Assembly: GCA_045606105.1 (NCBI GenBank)
Contig: JAZURI010000002.1
Coordinates: 155,230 to 219,229 of the forward strand
Source of the DNA: Spirochaetia bacterium
Lineage (GTDB): Bacteria > Spirochaetota > Spirochaetia > CADAEX01
Length of the DNA: 64,000 bases
Reading direction: 5' to 3'
Positions 19,387 through 36,058 of the stretch are shown here, piece by piece. The notes below the pieces were generated by a model. The model had not been told where the DNA came from, searched no databases, and worked only from the letters and a program-made list of their open reading frames with translations. The position numbers and the translations under genes were made by a program. The first letter of the stretch is position 1; each line of letters starts with the position of its first letter.

Positions 19387-20675
19387 ATAACCTCACCTTT
19401 AAGAGTATTACCCACAGCGGAAACAATTTTCACATCCATGAATGTTCCTATTTTATCACATTTTTCTGCAAATACAACCATATCATCCCCTTCAGTTCTT
19501 CCCAGAAGCTCTTTTTCATCCTTTTTGGAGACAGATTCAACAAGAACCCTTCTTACTGAACCGACCTTGCTTTCCTTCAGCTCTCCGCTTATCCTGTGCT
19601 GGAGTGAAATGATCCTGTCCAGACGGGCCAGCTTGATTTCGTGAGGAACGCTGTCAGGCAATGTACAGGCCTTTGTTCCCTCCCTGGGATTGTAATAATA
19701 GGTATATGCATCGGAATACCTGACCTTTTCCATAAGCTCGGCAGTGGCAAGCCAGTCCTCCTCCTTTTCCCCCGGAAACCCGATGAGAATATCGGTGGTC
19801 AGGGATACGCCCCTTATCTTTTCCTTTATTTCGGCAATGATATCGAGATAACGGCCGGAGGTATATTTTCTGTTCATAAGCTCCAGGATCCTGTCGCTGC
19901 CGTGCTGTACCGGAAGATGGATATGGCTGCAGATCTGCGGATATTCCGCTATGGTATCGATAAGGTCGGAGCCGAAATCCTTAGGGTGGGATGACATGAA
20001 CCTTATCCAGCCCACGGATGAGATATTCTCGCAGGTAAGCTTCAGCAATGTGGCAAAATCTATCTCCTTTCCCTTATAAAATCCACGGTAGGAGTTTACA
20101 TTCTGTCCCAGGAAGGTAATCTCCTTTACCCCCTTGCTGTCCAGAAAGCGGACCTCGTTGATAACAGCCTCGGCATCCCTTGAAATCTCCCTTCCCCGTA
20201 CATACGGAACAATACAATAGGAACAGAAATTGTTGCAGCCGTGCATTATCGGCACAAAGGCCTTGAAGCTGCTGCCGTCGGAATGGTAATCCATGAATAC
20301 ATATTTGTCGGAAGCCTTTTTTTCAGGGATTGAATCCAGATACTCCAGGATATTGTTCTTTTCAAAGGTTCCCAGTACATAATCCACAGTTCCCTTTCCT
20401 TCCCTGAGCAGCTCCTCCTTGATACGCTCTGCCATACATCCTATTATGACAAGCCTGAAATCAGAGCTTTTTTTCAGTCTCCTGAAATAACCGATACGTC
20501 CCCATATCCTGTCCTCTGCAGTCTTGCGTACAGAGCATGTGTTTATGATAACCAGATCGGCATCTGCATCCTTTGCACAGGGCTCCCAGCCCCTTTTCCT
20601 GAGGAGAAGCTCCAGCGAGTCTGATTCTGCCTTGTTCATCTGGCAGCCGTATGTTTCAAGCCAATATTTATTCAT
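19383..20675 (-). CDS. miaB: tRNA-2-methylthio-N6-dimethylallyladenosine synthase (radical SAM methylthiotransferase)
   Basis: 430 aa. UPF0004 N-domain, the radical-SAM CxxxCxxC (CNNFCSYC) and a TRAM C-domain. Confidence 0.85.
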   Translation of the reverse strand: MNKYWLETYGCQMNKAESDSLELLLRKRGWEPCAKDADADLVIINTCSVRKTAEDRIWGRIGYFRRLKKSSDFRLVIIGCMAERIKEELLREGKGTVDYVLGTFEKNNILEYLDSIPEKKASDKYVFMDYHSDGSSFKAFVPIMHGCNNFCSYCIVPYVRGREISRDAEAVINEVRFLDSKGVKEITFLGQNVNSYRGFYKGKEIDFATLLKLTCENISSVGWIRFMSSHPKDFGSDLIDTIAEYPQICSHIHLPVQHGSDRILELMNRKYTSGRYLDIIAEIKEKIRGVSLTTDILIGFPGEKEEDWLATAELMEKVRYSDAYTYYYNPREGTKACTLPDSVPHEIKLARLDRIISLQHRISGELKESKVGSVRRVLVESVSKKDEKELLGRTEGDDMVVFAEKCDKIGTFMDVKIVSAVGNTLKGEVI

Positions 20676-21387
20676 CTGTTTTCTCTTTTATGAATTTTCT
20701 AACAAGTTCCCAGTCATTGTCAATAGGGACAACAATCCAGGCCCCCTTATCAAAATCCTCATCCACATCGGAAGCCTTTAATCCGTGATGGAGAAGATTT
20801 GAATAGGTTTCGTAAAGAACATTACCCGTCCCCAGGGAAATATTCCTGATTTTCTCTATTTTACCCATGGTCCGGTAAAGTGTGTAGGCCTCTTTAAGGG
20901 AAATATCGGTTTTTGTATATCTGAAGCCGATTCTGATTATGCTGCCCAGTTTTCCGATATCTGCAACACCTATTTCCCCCAGCTTATCCTTAACTGCCAT
21001 AAGAATCTTCTGCTGTCGGTAATCCCTGGAAAAAACAGGAGTAAAATGGCGTGCCCTGGCTATTCTCAGAGCCTCTATTCCGTTTACATGATGAATTCCG
21101 GCAGGATAAAACAGTGTGGTCCAGTTGCCGTTTTCATCCCTTACCCTGTAGGTAGGATCCACAAGGGGCTCCTCCAGCTCAACATCTATTCCTCCGAGAA
21201 CATTAACCAGTTCCACAAAAGCATACATGTCCACCACCGCATGGCGGTTTATTTCAAGCCCCGTGATTTCCGAAACAGTTCCGGCCAGGGTTTCTATACC
21301 GTAGGTTCCGTAAAGGCTGTTTATTTTCTTTTTTTTGTGGTAAAGGTCTCGCGGAATACTGATAAGATTTGCATAATTTCTTTCCAT
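20668..21387 (-). CDS. LCP (LytR-CpsA-Psr) family domain ORF; the 3' fragment of a frameshifted LCP gene
   Basis: The 239 aa ORF starts MERNYANLISIPRD (the LCP SIPRD motif). Upstream of its ATG the same frame continues without a start codon as NILVCGTNQNNTDAIIIVSLD, which is the beginning of the LCP domain, back to the A9 tract at 21472-21480. Confidence 0.6.
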   Translation of the reverse strand: MERNYANLISIPRDLYHKKKKINSLYGTYGIETLAGTVSEITGLEINRHAVVDMYAFVELVNVLGGIDVELEEPLVDPTYRVRDENGNWTTLFYPAGIHHVNGIEALRIARARHFTPVFSRDYRQQKILMAVKDKLGEIGVADIGKLGSIIRIGFRYTKTDISLKEAYTLYRTMGKIEKIRNISLGTGNVLYETYSNLLHHGLKASDVDEDFDKGAWIVVPIDNDWELVRKFIKEKTDE

Positions 21388-21467
21388 ATCAAGAGATACA
21401 ATTATTATGGCATCGGTATTGTTCTGATTTGTCCCGCAGACCAGTATGTTGAACAGGTTATCTGAGT

Positions 21468-22574
21468 TCAGTTTTTTTTTACCGATGAGATAATCACATT
21501 ATCCTTGTCAAATATGTATATTTCCCCGGTGCTTTTCTCCATGGAGATCTTGCCGGCCCGGCGACCGGTACTGTCGGTAATGACAAAATCGTAGCTGTCC
21601 TCAGTTTCGGAAGGTTTTGGGGAGATTACGCAGCCTCGGATGTCAAGAAAGCTTCTGAAGGAGTCATCGTTTACCATGTATTTAAGCTCCTCCAACTTTG
21701 AAACCGCCTTTTTTTCCGCAACTGTACGGATATCGAAATGAGAATCTATGTTGAAAAGCCTTTCCTTTAGCTCATGAAGCGTACAGACTGTATCACCGAG
21801 GGTAAAGGCTCCGTTTCCGAAGCTGAATACAGCAGAACAGAGAGTGGAACCGTCGGAACGGTGAATATCATACCCTTTACTTTGATAATCATCCTGTTTT
21901 TCCTTGAGATAAAGCTTTTTTTCTTTGAGATAAGATGAAAGGGCAGGATCTTCCATTATGGCTTCAAAATCCCCCAGAAGAGGAAAAACCGCACTGAATC
22001 TTTTTGCAGTGCCGTCGTAATGCCTTTCCAGGAAGTTTCTGATATCATCGGTTCCGTTCAGAACAGCGGAATCTGAACCGTTATGGGTTTCTGCCGTTAT
22101 TTTATCCGAAACGGAAACAGTAAAGAATGCTGCTCCGCCGGACAGGAGAAATATCCTGTTTCCCCGCAGAACAGGTGTCAGGCCGTATTTTTCATACAGC
22201 CGGAGAGCATCTTCCCCTTCAGAATAAAGAAGAAGAGCCTCCCTGAGCCTGGCCTCTCCGTACTCGCTGAGAAGCCTGTCCACCGCATTGTAATAAAGGG
22301 CGTAGTCTGAACCGTCATTTTTATCTGATTCTCCGGAAGGCAGGGTGTTACCATAGGAATTTGTCTTCAGACCGAGAAATTCCCTGACCTCGTTAAGGTC
22401 ATCCCCCAGCCCGTCAACCGAAAAGTCCAGCTGATTAAGATTTCCGGCCGTCTCCTTTATTTCGGTATAAAGCCGGTTTACTGCACGGTAGGTCCGGTAA
22501 TTGAAAAAAAACAGACTTCCCACACAGATCAGGGCAAGGGTAATGATTACTGCATTACGGAGCCTTCCTCTCAT
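21468..22574 (-). CDS. N-terminal membrane-anchored region of the LCP-family protein, in the 5' reading frame (ORF ends at the A9 tract)
   Basis: 368 aa. An N-terminal TM segment (AVIITLALICVGSLFFF) then a large extracytoplasmic region. The ORF terminates ...SSVKKN* immediately after AAAAAAAAAC. Confidence 0.55.
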   Translation of the reverse strand: MRGRLRNAVIITLALICVGSLFFFNYRTYRAVNRLYTEIKETAGNLNQLDFSVDGLGDDLNEVREFLGLKTNSYGNTLPSGESDKNDGSDYALYYNAVDRLLSEYGEARLREALLLYSEGEDALRLYEKYGLTPVLRGNRIFLLSGGAAFFTVSVSDKITAETHNGSDSAVLNGTDDIRNFLERHYDGTAKRFSAVFPLLGDFEAIMEDPALSSYLKEKKLYLKEKQDDYQSKGYDIHRSDGSTLCSAVFSFGNGAFTLGDTVCTLHELKERLFNIDSHFDIRTVAEKKAVSKLEELKYMVNDDSFRSFLDIRGCVISPKPSETEDSYDFVITDSTGRRAGKISMEKSTGEIYIFDKDNVIISSVKKN

Positions 22575-23830
22575 TAATGCCTGAAACTCCTCTGGCCGGT
22601 ATAAACCATGGCGGCATTGAATTCGTTGCAGGCCTCGATGGATTCAAAATCCCTGAGGGATCCGCCCGGCTGAACCACGGCTGTTACCCCTTCCTTAAGC
22701 CCGATATCGATTCCGTCCCTGAACGGGAAGAAGGCATCGGAAACCATGATGCTTCCCTTGAGACCGCCGTTTTCAGCCTTTACCACATCCTCGATTGCCT
22801 TTCTCTTGTCAGGATCTGTAAGGTTATACCAGGATTTTGCATAAAGATCCCAACAGATTCTGTCACACATTTTCTTGTAGGCCTTGTCTCTTGCAATTTC
22901 TGCAACACCTACCCTGTCCTGCTCTCCGGTACCGATTCCCACTGTAACGCCGTCCTTTACATAGATGACGGAGTTGCTGGTTACACCGCTTTCAACAAGC
23001 CAGCCGAAGATGATATCGTCGAATTCCTTGTCTGTAGGAGCTCTGTTTACCCTGTATTCCTGACCCTTGTATTCGCATACCGCAGGGAGGAAATCCTCTT
23101 TCTTTCTTGCAACCGGAAGATAGGACCACTGGGTAATGATTCCGCCGTCAAGAATGGACTTGAAATCGAGGAAACGGGTATATGCAAACTCATGGAGCCT
23201 GTCGATATTCTTTATGCGCATAACACGGAGATTCTTCTTGGACTGGAAAAGCTCGAATGCCTTAGGTGAGAATTCAGGTGCGGCAACAACCTCCACATAT
23301 CCTTCGCATACCTGCTCTGCAGTTTCGATATCCACCTCGCGGTTAAGGATTACCGCACCGCCGAAGGCTGCAATCCTGTCTGCCATAAGGGACTTATGGA
23401 ATGCATCCACAAGAGTTTCTCCCTTGGCTACACCGGACGGGTTGTTGTGCTTGATGATGACACTGCATGGTGTATCCTGGAAAAAGCGGAGAATGTTAAG
23501 ACCGTTGTCTACATCTGTGATATTGATCTTTCCGGGATGCTTGCCGGACTGAAGAAGCTCCACATCGGAAGCAAGGTACTTTCCGTTCAGGACAGTTTCC
23601 ACACCGCCGATGGAAAGGTTGCCGTTGATAAGCTTGTACATGGCTGCAGGCTGATCAGGGTTTTCCCCGTATCTGAGTCCCAGTCTTTCCCCGCCGATGT
23701 CCCACTGCACCTTCTCGTAGCACAGGGTCTGCTTTCCGGCCTCTCCCCTGAAGGAAATATCCATGAATTCAGGAAAGGCGTCCTTGTTGATGTTCTTATA
23801 CATATCCTTGAGATTTTCTGCCATTTTCAT
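22574..23830 (-). CDS. purH: AICAR transformylase domain protein (C-terminal half of the canonical bifunctional PurH), a separate ORF
   Basis: 418 aa. LRYGENPDQPAAMY, ...SDAFFPFRDGIDIGLKEGVTAVVQPGGSLRD and ...TGQRSFRH match the PurH AICARFT domain through to the C-terminal RHFRH-type end. Confidence 0.8.
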   Translation of the reverse strand: MKMAENLKDMYKNINKDAFPEFMDISFRGEAGKQTLCYEKVQWDIGGERLGLRYGENPDQPAAMYKLINGNLSIGGVETVLNGKYLASDVELLQSGKHPGKINITDVDNGLNILRFFQDTPCSVIIKHNNPSGVAKGETLVDAFHKSLMADRIAAFGGAVILNREVDIETAEQVCEGYVEVVAAPEFSPKAFELFQSKKNLRVMRIKNIDRLHEFAYTRFLDFKSILDGGIITQWSYLPVARKKEDFLPAVCEYKGQEYRVNRAPTDKEFDDIIFGWLVESGVTSNSVIYVKDGVTVGIGTGEQDRVGVAEIARDKAYKKMCDRICWDLYAKSWYNLTDPDKRKAIEDVVKAENGGLKGSIMVSDAFFPFRDGIDIGLKEGVTAVVQPGGSLRDFESIEACNEFNAAMVYTGQRSFRH

Positions 23831-23834
23831 ATCC

Positions 23835-24512
23835 TTAGTGAAGATTATAGATTCCGGCAGCCTTTTCTGCTGTTATGCCGGAAAGGTAGTTGATGATAGC
23901 TGTATCGTATGCTGATGTCTTTCCGAAAGTAACCTTTGCAAGGCGGAATCTTTCGGCCAGAGCCATTTCACCGTTGTTAGCCTCCAGATGGCTGATGATT
24001 GCACCGTATTCTGCAGGATCTGCAACAGAAGCAACCCTGAGGTAGTTCTTGGCTGATGCCCTCAGCATGCAAGGTCCGCCGATATCGATGTTTCCTCTTG
24101 CATTTTCAGGAGTTGCATCTGCCTTTGCAACAGTCTTTTCAAAAGGATAGAGATTCACGACAATCATGTCGAAAACTGTAGCCTCTGTTCTGGCAATATC
24201 CTTCTTATGCTCTTCGTTGTAGGTTTCGCTGAGGATTCCCAGATAGATCTTGAAATCAAGGGTCTTAACCAGACCGCCCTGCATTTCAGGCTGCTTTGTA
24301 TAATCGGAAACCTGAATAAGTGTTCCCTCTGCCTTATCGCCAAGAACATCCCTGATATAGGTATATGTTCCGCCGGTGGAGTAGATTCTGATGTCAGGAT
24401 TGATGCAAACCAGCTTCCTTACAAATTCGTCCAGACCTGTCTTGTCTGAAACACTGATAAGGACATTTCTGATTTTTACCTTATCATCGATTTCTGTTAC
24501 GTTGTTGATCAT
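23835..24512 (-). CDS. purH: IMP cyclohydrolase (MGS-like) domain protein (N-terminal half of canonical PurH), a separate ORF
   Basis: I started at MINNV, with GAGGT 8 nt upstream. VLISVSDKTGL, IYSTGGT, VKTLDFKIYLGIL, VVNLYPF and NIDIGGPCMLRASAKN match the PurH IMPCH domain. The ORF ends 4 nt before the AICARFT ORF begins. Confidence 0.8.
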   Translation of the reverse strand: MINNVTEIDDKVKIRNVLISVSDKTGLDEFVRKLVCINPDIRIYSTGGTYTYIRDVLGDKAEGTLIQVSDYTKQPEMQGGLVKTLDFKIYLGILSETYNEEHKKDIARTEATVFDMIVVNLYPFEKTVAKADATPENARGNIDIGGPCMLRASAKNYLRVASVADPAEYGAIISHLEANNGEMALAERFRLAKVTFGKTSAYDTAIINYLSGITAEKAAGIYNLH

Positions 24513-24534
24513 AGTTTTACCTCTGTTTATATGT

Positions 24535-27252
24535 TTATGCACCGTGACAATGCTTGAACTTTTTTCCGCTTCCGCATGGGCATGGATCATTTCTTCCCAC
24601 CTTAGGGGTTGATCTTACCACCTGTATCTGTTTTCCGTCAGGCTGCTGAGGTGCCCTTCCCTGAGCCACATTCCTGTGTGCCGCAAACTGTGCCGATTCC
24701 TGGTGTGTAGCCACGGAGGCACTTCTCTGTCTCGGCTTTTCCTCATATTTTTCAATCCGTACATTGATTACCTTTCTGGCAATGATACGCCTTATATCCT
24801 CAATCATTTTGTCGAAAATATCGAAGCCTTCCAGCTTGTACTCCAGCAGCGGGTTCTTCTGGCCGTAGGTACGGAGATTCACCGCCTCCTTCAGGGCATC
24901 AAGAGCCTCCAGATGCTCCTGCCACTTGATATCGATGATCCTGAGATATTCCATCTTGGCAAACATGTTGAAATCATCCCTTCCTACCTTTTCAGCCTTG
25001 CTGTCCAGGTCATCGGAAATATATTTTACTATTGCTTCCTTCAGCTGCTCCGGAGTTTCGTAGGACGAAACATCAAGAACGCTGTCCGCATTGAAGAAAA
25101 GCTTTTCCCTGAAGCTCTCCAGCGCTTCCGGAATATCGGACTGCTCCTTGACCTTATCGAAGAACTCATCGGCAAAATCCTTTATGATGCCTTTGATCCT
25201 GTCAAGGAAATTCATGTCTGCAATGACATCCTCCCTCTGGGAATAGATGAACTTTCTGTGTTCGCTGAGAACATTGTCGTAATCGAGAAGATGCTTTCTG
25301 ATTTCGTAGTTTCTTTCCTCAACCTTCTTCTGGGCATTTTCTATGGATTTGCTTATCCATGGGTGACGGATTGGCTCGTTGTCCTTCATTCCCACCTTTG
25401 CCATCATGGATTTGAGGTTGTCACCGCCGAAAAGTCTCATGAGGGTATCGTCCAGAGAGATATAGAACCTGGATTTTCCCGGGTCTCCCTGACGTCCTGA
25501 ACGACCTCTCAGCTGGTTGTCGATTCGTCTTGATTCATGTCTTTCGGTACCGATAACATAAAGACCGCCCAGGGACTTGATCTCTTCGTAGTCCTTTCTC
25601 CATTTGACCATGGCCTTTTCCAGGGCCTTTTCAAATTCCTCCGGAGTTGCCTCTGTACCGGCATTTTTACGGGCTATGTATTCAGGGTTTCCACCAAGCT
25701 TGATGTCTGTACCGCGTCCTGCCATGTTTGTAGCAATGGTTACCGCACCTTTTGCACCGGCTCCTGAGATAATCATGGCTTCGCGGGCATGGTTCTTGGC
25801 ATTGAGCACCTCATGCCTGATTCCCCGTCTGCTGAGCAGCGAGGAAAGGAGCTCCGACTTCTCGATGGAAACGGTTCCCACCAGTACCGGCTGTCCCTTT
25901 TTGTAGACTGATTCTATCTCATCACAGATAGCCTTGAACTTTATCTCCTCGTTAAGATAGATCTCATCATCCATGTCCTTTCTGGCCACCGGACGGTTTG
26001 TAGGGATTACAACCACATCCAGGTCATATATCTTGGTAAATTCCCTGGCTTCGGTATCGGCTGTACCGGTCATACCGGAAAGCTTGTCATACATCTTGAA
26101 GTAATTCTGGAAGGTGATGGTGGCGTGGGTCCTGTTCTTTCTGGCTACCTTGATCTTTTCCTTTGCCTCTATGGCCTGATGGAGACCGTCGGAATAACGG
26201 CGTCCCGAAAGGATACGACCTGTGAATTCGTCAACAATCTGTACCTGCCCCTCCTGAACCACATAATCCACATCAAGATGGAAAAGCTTATGAGCCTTGA
26301 GAGCCTGTGTAAAATAATGGATATATTCAAAGTTTTCGTCTGAAAAGAGAGAGCCTTCAATAAAATGATACTTGAGGAGGAGGCTCTCGATCTTGTTCAT
26401 ACCCTCATCGGTAAAGGTAACATGCTTTGTCTTTTCCTGAAGCTTGAAATCCCCTTTGAGAAGAGCATCCTCCTCCGGATAGGTTCCTGTTTCGGGATCC
26501 TTTTCGCATTCAACCAGGAACGGAACCAGTTTGTCCACCTGATAGAACTTTTCGGTATCATCCTCGGCCGCACCGGAAATGATAAGCGGAGTTCTGGCCT
26601 CGTCGATGAGGATGGAGTCGATTTCGTCCACAATGGCAAAGCTGTGACCTCTCTGTACCCGCTGGGAATTGTTCCAGCGCATGTTGTCACGGAGATAATC
26701 GAAACCCAGCTCATTGTTTGTGGCATAGGTGATATCACATTCATAGGCCTTTCTCTTGGCCTCAAAATCCATGTTGGAAAGAACGGTACCTACGGTTATG
26801 CCGAGAAAGTTGTGGACCCGTCCCATCCACTGGGCATCACGCTCGGCAAGATAGTCGTTGACAGTGACGATATGGACTCCCTTTCCCGAAAGTGCATTGA
26901 GGTATGCGGCCGTGATACTGGCCAGAGTCTTTCCTTCACCGGTCTTCATTTCGGTGATCTTTCCCTGATGGAGAACTATTCCTCCGAGAATCTGTACATC
27001 GTACGGTCTCTCTCCCAGAACCCTTCTTGCAGCCTCACGGCAGAGGGCAAAAGCTTCCGGCAGGATATCATCCAGGGTCTCTCCCGCAGAAAGACGCTTC
27101 CTGAAATCCTCAGTAATGCCTTTAAAGTCTTCATCCCGCAGGGACAGGGCCCAGGCCTCCTTTGCATTGACCTGATGCAGCAACGGCAGCAAAGACTTTA
27201 GGTCTTTATCATGCTTGGACCCGAAAATGGCCTCAACAACTTTATCCAGCAT
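24535..27252 (-). CDS. secA: Preprotein translocase ATPase SecA
   Basis: 905 aa. DEAD-like motor ([16 protein letters not shown]), the preprotein cross-linking domain, and a C-terminal zinc-binding tail [14 protein letters not shown]. Confidence 0.9.
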
Positions 27253-27410: not shown

Positions 27411-27440
27411 GGGCTGATTGAAAAATCAGCCTTTTTTTTT
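27411..27440 (+). terminator. Rho-independent terminator on the plus strand (GGCTGATT-gaaa-AATCAGCC followed by T9)
   Basis: Perfect 8-bp stem, 4-nt loop, then nine T residues on the + strand. No annotated + strand gene lies upstream, so it may end a small RNA or form the other half of a bidirectional terminator. Confidence 0.45.
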
Positions 27441-27452
27441 ATCCCTGAAGAC

Positions 27453-27485
27453 AAAAAAAAACCTTGGTCCGACATAGGACCAAGG
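27453..27485 (-). terminator. Rho-independent terminator of the EF-G paralog gene (CCTTGGTCC stem, T9 on the minus strand)
   Basis: On the minus strand GGACCAAGG-tatgtc-CCTTGGTCC is followed by nine T residues, about 32 nt downstream of the stop at 27517. Confidence 0.6.
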
Positions 27486-34987: not shown

Positions 34988-36058
34988 CTATTTTTTTTTC
35001 GTATTATATCCCGTACTCATCATGATACTGATGAATTTTGTACTTTCGAAGTAACTGAAGGCTACCCTGAACATAACAGTTATAGGAACGGCAAGAACTG
35101 CTCCCAGCGGACCCCATATCCATGACCAGAAAGCGAGAGTGATAAGGATAAGCACCGGGCTGAGATTAAGGTTGGATCCCTGAATACGAGGCTCAATGAA
35201 GTTACCCATCAGCTGCTGGATTCCCAGGTTAAGGAGGAATATTACCATAGGAAGGATTGGTTCCGGATAGAACTGCACTATACCCTGTATGGAAATAAGT
35301 ACAACGACAATGGTTGAACCGATAGTAGGTACGAAGTTAAGGAAGAATGCTATACAACCCCAGATAAGAGGGAAATCCACCCCTGTAAGCTCAAGTACAA
35401 GCCATACCTCAAGACCTGTGAGGAAGGAGATGATGGACTTGATGAAGAAGTACTTACCTACCAGCTGCAGGATTCTGGCACTGATGATGGTAAACTTCTT
35501 GGAGGCCTGGAAGTTGAAGGCATCGTTGATTTTAGATGATATATACGGATATTCGAGAAACAGGAAAAACATGAAGATGAAGATAAGCACTGTATATCCC
35601 ATCATCTTGGTAAAGGAGCCCGAAACTCCCATTACATAGTTCTGAACTATTGAATACCAGTCGTAGGCAGCCAGGAAATCGGGTGCCGTATCCAGCTTGA
35701 AGAGAATCATGATACGGGTTGAGAAATCGGCATAGATATCCCTGAACTTGTTAAGATACTTCGGATAATCGCTGATGAAGACACTGAAGCTGGACTGGAC
35801 GACAGTGATTAAGAAATACAGGAAAACCGCCAGGATGGTCATGATAAGGATTACGGCCAGTGTTCTCGGTATCTTGCATTTATCTTCAAGAAACTGCATG
35901 ACAGGAAACAGCATGAAGCTGATCATAATGGCAAATACCAATGGAGCCATAACGGATGCGGAAGACTTCAGGAAAAAGCATCCCACCATTACAAAAATCA
36001 GGACAAACAGAATGAGAATAGCCTGATTAAGTTTATTAGTATTGTCATTTTTCAACAT
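34988..36058 (-). CDS. AI-2E family transporter (PerM/YdiK-like)
   Basis: 356 aa, about 8 TM. The conserved C-terminal half (FLNFVPTIGS...LGAVLAVPIT) is typical of the AI-2E/UPF0118 family. Confidence 0.75.
   Translation of the reverse strand: MLKNDNTNKLNQAILILFVLIFVMVGCFFLKSSASVMAPLVFAIMISFMLFPVMQFLEDKCKIPRTLAVILIMTILAVFLYFLITVVQSSFSVFISDYPKYLNKFRDIYADFSTRIMILFKLDTAPDFLAAYDWYSIVQNYVMGVSGSFTKMMGYTVLIFIFMFFLFLEYPYISSKINDAFNFQASKKFTIISARILQLVGKYFFIKSIISFLTGLEVWLVLELTGVDFPLIWGCIAFFLNFVPTIGSTIVVVLISIQGIVQFYPEPILPMVIFLLNLGIQQLMGNFIEPRIQGSNLNLSPVLILITLAFWSWIWGPLGAVLAVPITVMFRVAFSYFESTKFISIMMSTGYNTKKK

Follow-up and report, generated by a model that had tools for sequence, protein, structure and literature searches.

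A poly-A run as a candidate programmed recoding site in an LCP-family envelope gene of spirochaetes

To our knowledge, few conserved programmed frameshifts are described in chromosomal genes of bacteria (prfB, dnaX, copA and tssM). Long runs of A are a classic substrate for RNA polymerase slippage. Here, we describe a candidate site of this kind, a run of nine A's (A9) inside a cell-envelope gene of the LytR-CpsA-Psr (LCP) family. The gene lies in a 64,000-nucleotide (nt) stretch of DNA from a Spirochaetia bacterium (contig JAZURI010000002.1, positions 155,230 to 219,229 of the forward strand), hereafter called the window. We consider it probable, at roughly 0.6, that recoding at this run is programmed and that one gene thereby gives a short and a full-length protein.

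A similar arrangement is known from tssM of Citrobacter rodentium and Yersinia pseudotuberculosis, likewise a gene for an envelope-spanning membrane protein that is broken right after a poly-A run, in that case A11 (PMC4256274). Its zero frame gives a truncated N-terminal product, and untemplated A's give the full-length protein with the functional C-terminal domain. There is no Shine-Dalgarno-like element or RNA structure nearby, and the absence of structure was also argued to favour slippage (PMC4256274). In Citrobacter, the A11 run yields transcripts with 10–15 A's and two isoforms, and both isoforms and their ratio are needed (PMC4256274). The tssM product belongs to the membrane complex of the type VI secretion system, in another phylum, and its slippage was shown by experiment, whereas the case made here is one of comparative genomics. 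The LCP site further differs in being conserved over many deep lineages, with a frame state that alternates between them.

A full-length and a truncated product also come from a slippery A run in dnaX, by slippage on A9 in Thermus thermophilus, from a two-ORF (open reading frame) gene of the Chlorobi type, and by −1 programmed ribosomal frameshifting at A_AAA_AAG in E. coli. As among the LCP genes, the standard frame yields the long product in some dnaX homologues and the short one in others, and the mechanism possibly varies as well. However, dnaX encodes a cytoplasmic replication protein, and in E. coli its site has defined stimulators, namely a hairpin and an internal Shine-Dalgarno sequence, neither of which was found at the LCP site. 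Overlapping ORFs fused by one inserted nucleotide at about nine A/T are also known from orfA/orfAB of insertion sequence (IS) elements and from Shigella mxiE/spa (PMC1088944, PMC5009743). Those are genes of mobile elements or of a virulence plasmid, whereas the LCP gene is a chromosomal envelope gene of housekeeping type in a conserved operon. At the protein level, the C-terminal 260 amino acids (aa) match the family of the LCP glycopolymer transferases (TagT/U/V, Cps2A and LcpA) by Pfam, NCBIfam and fold; the gene differs from these in its N-terminal region of ~370 aa, which has no family or fold match, and in its spirochaete hosts. The kind of recoding is already known (poly-A slippage in tssM, Thermus dnaX, mxiE and IS elements), and the unusual features here are the wide conservation and the default frame alternating between lineages. 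An LCP or spirochaete frameshift was mentioned neither in the Atkins 2016 recoding review nor in Antonov 2013 (GeneTack clusters) and its supplements, and keyword searches found none.

The LCP gene of the window is on the minus strand, and its parts are as follows.

20668..22574, minus strand: whole gene, read as recoded; N-terminal anchor and N-domain, poly-A linker, LCP domain; 635 aa predicted after addition of one A or a −1 ribosomal shift.
21468..22574, minus strand: zero-frame ORF of 368 aa, the predicted short isoform, ending in SSVKKN before the stop.
21472..21480, minus strand: A9 run, the putative slip site; zero frame GT[A AAA AAA AA]C; codes for KKK, conserved in the interdomain linker.
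21468..21470, minus strand: zero-frame TGA stop, one codon past A9; shares letters with the LCP-frame Leu codon CTG (C-TGA).
21388..21471, minus strand: 28-codon bridge, LNSDNLFNILVCGTNQNNTDAIIIVSLD, read in the −1 frame; ATG, GTG and TTG are all absent.
20668..21387, minus strand: ORF of 239 aa as gene callers define it, starting MERNYANLISIPRD; remainder of the LCP domain; overlaps the start of miaB.
Junction: predicted tryptic peptide of the fused protein, LNSDNLFNILVCGTNQNNTDAIIIVSLDMER, preceded by K.

On the minus strand, the junction reads ...ATC TCA TCG GTA AAA AAA AAC TGA ACT CAG..., and the heptamers A_AAA_AAA and A_AAA_AAC are both present in the zero frame of the run. Translation of 21480..20668 in the −1 frame gave KKKLNSDNLFNILVCGTNQNNTDAIIIVSLDMERNY..., open down to the stop at 20668. 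The 635-aa protein obtained by adding one A has no internal stop, and single-ORF orthologues of 650–690 aa aligned with it end to end. The original prediction had singled out the homopolymer as the key feature, had taken the two ORFs for one gene and had expected a single protein of ~640 aa from an A10 run; the open LCP frame, the end-to-end alignments and the length of the fusion agree with it. Its further claim, that the LCP domain extends back to the A tract, was confirmed by the −1-frame translation and by the profile match of the fused protein.

In that match, the Pfam family LytR_cpsA_psr (PF03816) scored 95.9 bits (cut-off 24.6) over residues 386–532 and covered profile positions 1–148, whereas the 239-aa ORF alone covered the profile only from position 14 onward. 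NCBIfam TIGR00350 scored 83.8 bits (cut-off 62.3), and the equivalog models TagU, LytR and CpsA stayed far under their cut-offs. A Foldseek search with the AlphaFold model matched TagV, Cps2A and LcpA (E ~1e-15 to 1e-13), with target-normalised template modelling (TM) scores of 0.64–0.69 against TagV and LcpA. In alignments to the crystal structures of TagV and TagT, the bridge fell at the beginning of each, and the TagV alignment starts at QNNTDAIIIVSLD. In the model, the bridge forms the first two strands of the LCP core (residues 374–383 and 386–396), and in the orthologue alignment it carries the invariant residues L378, G381 and D388; S406-D410, the region of the IPRD motif, is also invariant. 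The N-terminal strand, the Asp motif and the IPRD motif that mark the LCP fold occur together only in the frameshifted, fused reading. By profile and fold, the fused protein belongs to the LCP family, with a predicted phosphotransferase activity that would attach a glycopolymer to peptidoglycan. We know of no LCP substrate in spirochaetes.

The 368-aa N-terminal part was modelled as a long helix with a hydrophobic anchor, a disordered stretch and then three beta/alpha modules. The N-domain (~370 aa) had no Pfam match and no significant Foldseek match. The linker residues 367–372, which hold the slip site, had a predicted local distance difference test (pLDDT) score below 50. Variants of the 368-aa ORF (P0123-P0126 vs P0121) differed at residues ~165–200 by two alternative blocks found in different backgrounds (NGSDSAVLNG...ERHYDGTAK vs NSSDSVVLDG...EKHYENTEK), which looks like recombination between alleles.

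Within the species, the run did not vary. GT-A9-CTGAA was found in 21/21 Logan contigs from 20 SRA runs of three accession series, with no tract-length variation across the assembled contigs of these runs. The cluster at 90% identity that contains the 368-aa ORF has 23 sequences, and 14 of the 15 members listed are exactly 368 aa long; the 239-aa ORF falls in a cluster with 16 members. A query with the fused protein found no ~635-aa protein of the species in a database of 5.8 billion protein sequences, and the sole near-identical match was the 368-aa cluster. In the bridge, dN within the species was 0: four nucleotide differences were counted by eye, all of them synonymous in the LCP frame.

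The same frameshift was found in at least 18 other lineages (LCP identity 40–72%), each with an A run of 9–12 nt at the same linker and the same need for one more A or a −1 shift. Out-of-frame junctions had A9 in L103-L111 and L182, A10 in L063, L071, L073, L079, L084, L123, L151, L174 and L186, A11 in L029, L034, L128, L139 and L185, and A12 in L183 (L183/L184). The run length varied among these lineages, and the frame relation was constant, with the LCP domain in the −1 frame relative to the N-domain. One more A in the mRNA or a −1 shift would give an uninterrupted protein of 620–695 aa, and the zero-frame stop came 0–1 codons past the run in all shifted lineages but one. The layout persisted between lineages only 45–50% identical. 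L103-L111, detected in the metagenome scan along with L123, L128, L139, L151 and L174, are nine sister lineages with 60–65% LCP identity to the window. The genome scan used the pattern [VI]DMYAF[IR][DE]; the VDMYAFVE of the window falls outside it, so the nearest genomes were missed.

A protein search with the LCP part found dozens of clusters of 'LCP-only' ORFs of 185–310 aa. The four clusters sampled led to five loci, two of them identical, and out-of-frame poly-A was present in 5/5 (L182, L183/L184, L185 and L186). Distant homologues (~30% identity over 94–99% of the length) are single ORFs of 650–690 aa, mostly from spirochaete metagenome-assembled genomes (MAGs). The gene order (two purH-like genes, LCP gene, miaB, lapA-like gene, SPOR gene) is common to shifted orthologues and single-ORF relatives, so the ancestral gene was one ORF. 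One of the sampled loci lies outside the purH-miaB context: L186 (482-2589; ERZ21831104 ctg97437c, 1.93 Mb) holds a homologue of 41% identity with A10 out of frame, reading DIKKKR to the stop and then KKKTINLPSSIP..., and adjoins TraG/TrwB-like conjugation genes.

The source assemblies of the shifted lineages came from SPAdes, MEGAHIT and Logan and included one chromosome-level MAG (OY759746.1). Homopolymers are error-prone and the zero frame breaks the gene in two, and the original prediction had named an assembly artefact and a recent pseudogene as explanations. With A9 in all contigs of the species and the same layout from several assemblers, the split is not an assembly artefact; many independent assemblies and platforms agree, and relatives with A10-A12 were assembled in frame. 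Both halves of the gene are under strong purifying selection. Among the seven full-length A9 sister sequences, the ratio of nonsynonymous to synonymous substitution rates (dN/dS) was 0.08 in the N-domain, 0.14 in the bridge and 0.07 in the rest of the LCP part, at a dS of ~0.75–0.9 (Nei-Gojobori, by pairs; between clades the estimates approach saturation). Over its ~270 codons, the LCP frame was free of stops in every lineage. This selection, together with the deep conservation, refutes a recent pseudogene. We give a sequencing error or a recent inactivation next to no credence.

The start-less bridge also bears on whether the halves are made as two proteins. In such a case, the LCP part would start at the ATG at 21387 or be re-initiated at C-TGA, and would act as a non-covalent partner of the 368-aa protein. 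The species has an in-frame ATG 84 nt past the run, and ORFs of 185–310 aa are annotated as an 'LCP family protein' in their own right by gene callers and by NCBI. However, of the eight lineages checked, five had their first ATG, GTG or TTG in the LCP frame 268–282 nt past the run, at the M of DMYAF in mid-domain. The 28 codons of the bridge are under purifying selection in spite of having no start, and they hold invariant residues and two core strands. No Shine-Dalgarno sequence was seen by eye ahead of the ATG at 21387, and a search of the minus strand between the two ORFs gave no sigma-70-like promoter. The codons at the overlap (CTG, CTA, ATC) are poor starts or non-starts. LCP domains act outside the membrane, and no signal peptide or membrane segment was found in the 239-aa ORF; judged by the model, this ORF by itself would be short of both the core structure and any export signal. 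Since the start-less bridge is conserved and starts come late in five of the eight lineages, independent initiation is implausible, and a pair of independent proteins is very unlikely, as is a pseudogene. The original prediction had held that reads uniformly showing A9, together with orthologues consisting of two ORFs with independent starts, would speak against a split gene. The orthologues are indeed two ORFs, but independent starts are absent from them, and this points to recoding at the level of RNA or the ribosome.

Under the programmed recoding that we favour, standard decoding would yield the 368-aa membrane-anchored N-domain protein, which ends one codon past A9. In a fraction of expression events, the frame would move to −1 at the run. 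Most likely, RNA polymerase would slip on the nine A's and add one untemplated A, and −1 ribosomal slippage on A_AAA_AAA or A_AAA_AAC may contribute. Either event would produce the 635-aa protein, in which the N-terminal anchor would set the C-terminal LCP phosphotransferase domain outside the membrane. The genotype would set the ratio of short to full-length protein, and relatives with an in-frame run would have the reverse ratio. The junction residues are nearly alike for the two mechanisms (VKKKL vs VKKNL).

Efficient −1 ribosomal frameshifting in bacteria normally needs a Shine-Dalgarno-like element upstream or a structure downstream. When the 17 shifted lineages were each folded separately against dinucleotide shuffles, no stable RNA structure was found near the run (mean z −0.15 for the 68 nt downstream and −0.21 for the 60 nt upstream) and no structure was shared. 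No Rfam frameshift element matched at the site, and no conserved upstream Shine-Dalgarno-like element was found. In addition, the slip runs of the shifted lineages were always at least 9 nt long, never 7 nt. Owing to the run length and the lack of a stimulatory structure, transcriptional slippage is favoured, with a ribosomal contribution possible. A length of 9 nt is where counter-selection against A/T runs appears in many bacteria (PMC1088944), and reporter frameshifting was 10%, 40% and 63% for 7, 9 and 11 A's (PMC3711429).

Ribosomal frameshifting as the main mechanism, with tRNA-Lys slipping on A_AAA_AAA, or tRNA-Lys and tRNA-Asn on A_AAA_AAC, and the mRNA unchanged, seems unlikely to us. 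All shifted lineages carry a canonical X_XXY_YYZ heptamer in phase, and known frameshift sites include both A_AAA_AAA and A_AAA_AAC (PMC3711429). The presence of a heptamer says little, though, because any run of 9 nt or more holds one in every phase. All shifted lineages but one need exactly −1, and in most of them the zero-frame stop directly past the run could slow the ribosome. Against this stand the missing hairpin or pseudoknot downstream, the missing upstream element, and runs that are always at least 9 nt although 7 nt would suffice; the exceptional lineage (L161, A13) requires the opposite shift.

The history of the run was followed on a rough neighbour-joining tree of the LCP domains of 147 sequences, 139 of which could be scored for the state of the junction. 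A run of 9–13 nt was present at the same linker position in 41 of the 139, in frame in 16 and out of frame in 25, and the other 98 had no run. The in-frame runs, A9-A12, encode a conserved KKK[LT]xxP linker, and MAGs of Peregrinibacteria are among these 16. In nearly every run-bearing gene, an mRNA with one A more or fewer would give the full-length protein or reach a stop, usually in 0–7 codons. In-frame and out-of-frame states interleaved on the tree, with at least eight changes.

Where the run is in frame, its codons are biased. In the 16 orthologues with an in-frame KKK, 47 of the 48 linker Lys codons were AAA (binomial p = 3e-9, an optimistic value, since the test counts related sequences as independent), while the gene-wide share of AAA among Lys codons averaged 0.62 and was 0.23 in L022. 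All-AAA KKK motifs were observed in 15 of the 16, compared with 5.6 expected. This indicates that the run itself is under selection even where it is in frame.

A tally of frame states gave 44 sequences that need one more A, one that needs one fewer (L161, A13) and 16 in frame. The 44 comprise 21 Logan contigs, nine of the sister group and 14 other lineages, with the window and the five LCP-only loci counted separately; L170 and L173, scored by the script as needing one A fewer, are at the ends of contigs and were left out as unreliable. Of the ten sister lineages, nine have A9, and L102 has A10 in frame. Sister pairs in different states were 89.9% (L102 vs L104) and 89.7% (L126 vs L161) identical in nucleotide sequence. 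The loci L161:1644 (Ga0123353_10276304), L126:3636 and L139:828, at 85–90% nucleotide identity, have A13, A12 and A11, so that L161 needs one A fewer, L126 is in frame and L139 needs one more; they are the sole clear tract-length variation between close lineages.

These states touch on a further claim of the original prediction, a contingency locus in phase OFF. Slipped-strand mispairing of the DNA would toggle the gene between A9 (OFF) and A10 (ON), and the assemblies would show the OFF majority. Poly-A tracts of 9–13 nt are hypermutable, this one is a simple repeat inside a coding region, and envelope enzymes are a typical phase-variable class. Related lineages do differ in tract length, both L102 from its A9 sisters and the three loci with A11, A12 and A13, and the changes of state number at least eight. 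In a classical contingency locus, mixed tract lengths are expected in close isolates, along with both OFF states. However, the 20 independent samples of the species were all A9, the database held no in-frame allele, and nine of ten sister lineages keep A9 at a dS of ~0.8. The states are skewed (44 vs 1, with 16 in frame), and the different-state sisters are ~10% apart in nucleotide sequence rather than members of one population. Moreover, if OFF were the majority state in at least 18 lineages, selection on the LCP domain would be relaxed, yet its dN/dS is 0.07, which counts against phase variation. We regard it as improbable.

A wider form of the recoding is possible but tentative. In this reading, the poly-A linker would be an old isoform switch common to the whole family, with slippage at the RNA level in all run-bearing orthologues, in frame or out of frame, those of Peregrinibacteria included. 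The ratio of isoforms would then be tuned by moving the genomic default between frames (the eight or more switches) while the run is kept intact. The N-domain-only protein would then serve a purpose of its own, perhaps regulating the enzyme or acting as its scaffold; in tssM, both forms and their ratio are needed. In the MAGs of Candidatus Peregrinibacteria (L093 and L101), the same architecture of N-domain and LCP domain was seen, with an in-frame KKK linker of A9/A10, and three metagenome contigs (L179-L181) grouped with these sequences on the tree. These copies suggest either transfer between spirochaetes and that lineage or a very old ancestry.

Several points weigh against programmed recoding, beside the weaknesses of the codon test and the tree. 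We infer the recoding from comparative genomics, and this holds for the occurrence of slippage, its level and efficiency, and a role for the short product. Slippage by RNA polymerase in these spirochaetes is presumed by analogy with other bacteria. Some AT-rich bacteria tolerate 9-nt runs (PMC1088944). Some close relatives are in frame (L102 with A10, L126 with A12 and L112 with A11), and L161 needs one A fewer. The tract length in DNA therefore shifts over evolutionary time, and low-level phase variation at the DNA level may occur.

The gene order around the LCP gene in the window is two purH-like ORFs, the LCP gene, miaB, a small LapA-like membrane protein gene and a TPR/SPOR gene; the last three neighbours were as first described in the original prediction. 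The window has six A/T runs of 9 nt, and the A9 of the LCP gene is the only one within the body of a coding region; the remaining five fall between genes or at the very C-terminal end of one. Two shorter runs in the LCP gene are below the 9-nt threshold, an in-frame A8 in the LCP part (21329-21336, HKKKKIN, interrupted by G) and a T8 in the membrane anchor (22504-22511, LFFFFN). At 34988-36058 (minus strand), the ORF of a multi-pass membrane protein, perhaps AI-2E/PerM-like, ends in ...GYNTKKK and the stop on an A9 run (34991-34999), where slippage would alter the C-terminal tail only. Upstream of secA, the intergenic stretch 27432-27461 has T9 and A9 at a distance of 12 nt (T9-atccctgaagac-A9), potentially a weak A-U hairpin or an AT-tract promoter element.

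Next to the LCP gene, at 22574-24590 (minus strand), a purH-like function is divided between two neighbouring ORFs that differ in frame, with no homopolymer between them; 24590..23835 has 251 aa and covers MGS and the first part of AICARFT, and 23830..22574 has 418 aa (AICARFT_IMPCHas). The same two-ORF layout recurs in eight other lineages (L001, L005, L014, L029, L034, L063, L022 and L024), and it is therefore a conserved arrangement and not an error.

If the recoding is true, it would add a widely distributed programmed frameshift to those described, in a family of spirochaete cell-envelope enzymes. Current annotation has it as a hypothetical protein and a truncated 'LCP family protein' in dozens of clusters, halves that pseudogene filters would wrongly discard. 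The runs of 9–13 nt, with in-frame and out-of-frame defaults, would form a natural comparative series for the evolution of slippage efficiency and isoform ratio. The finding would also draw attention to the role of LCP enzymes, and of their large N-terminal domain, in diderm spirochaetes.

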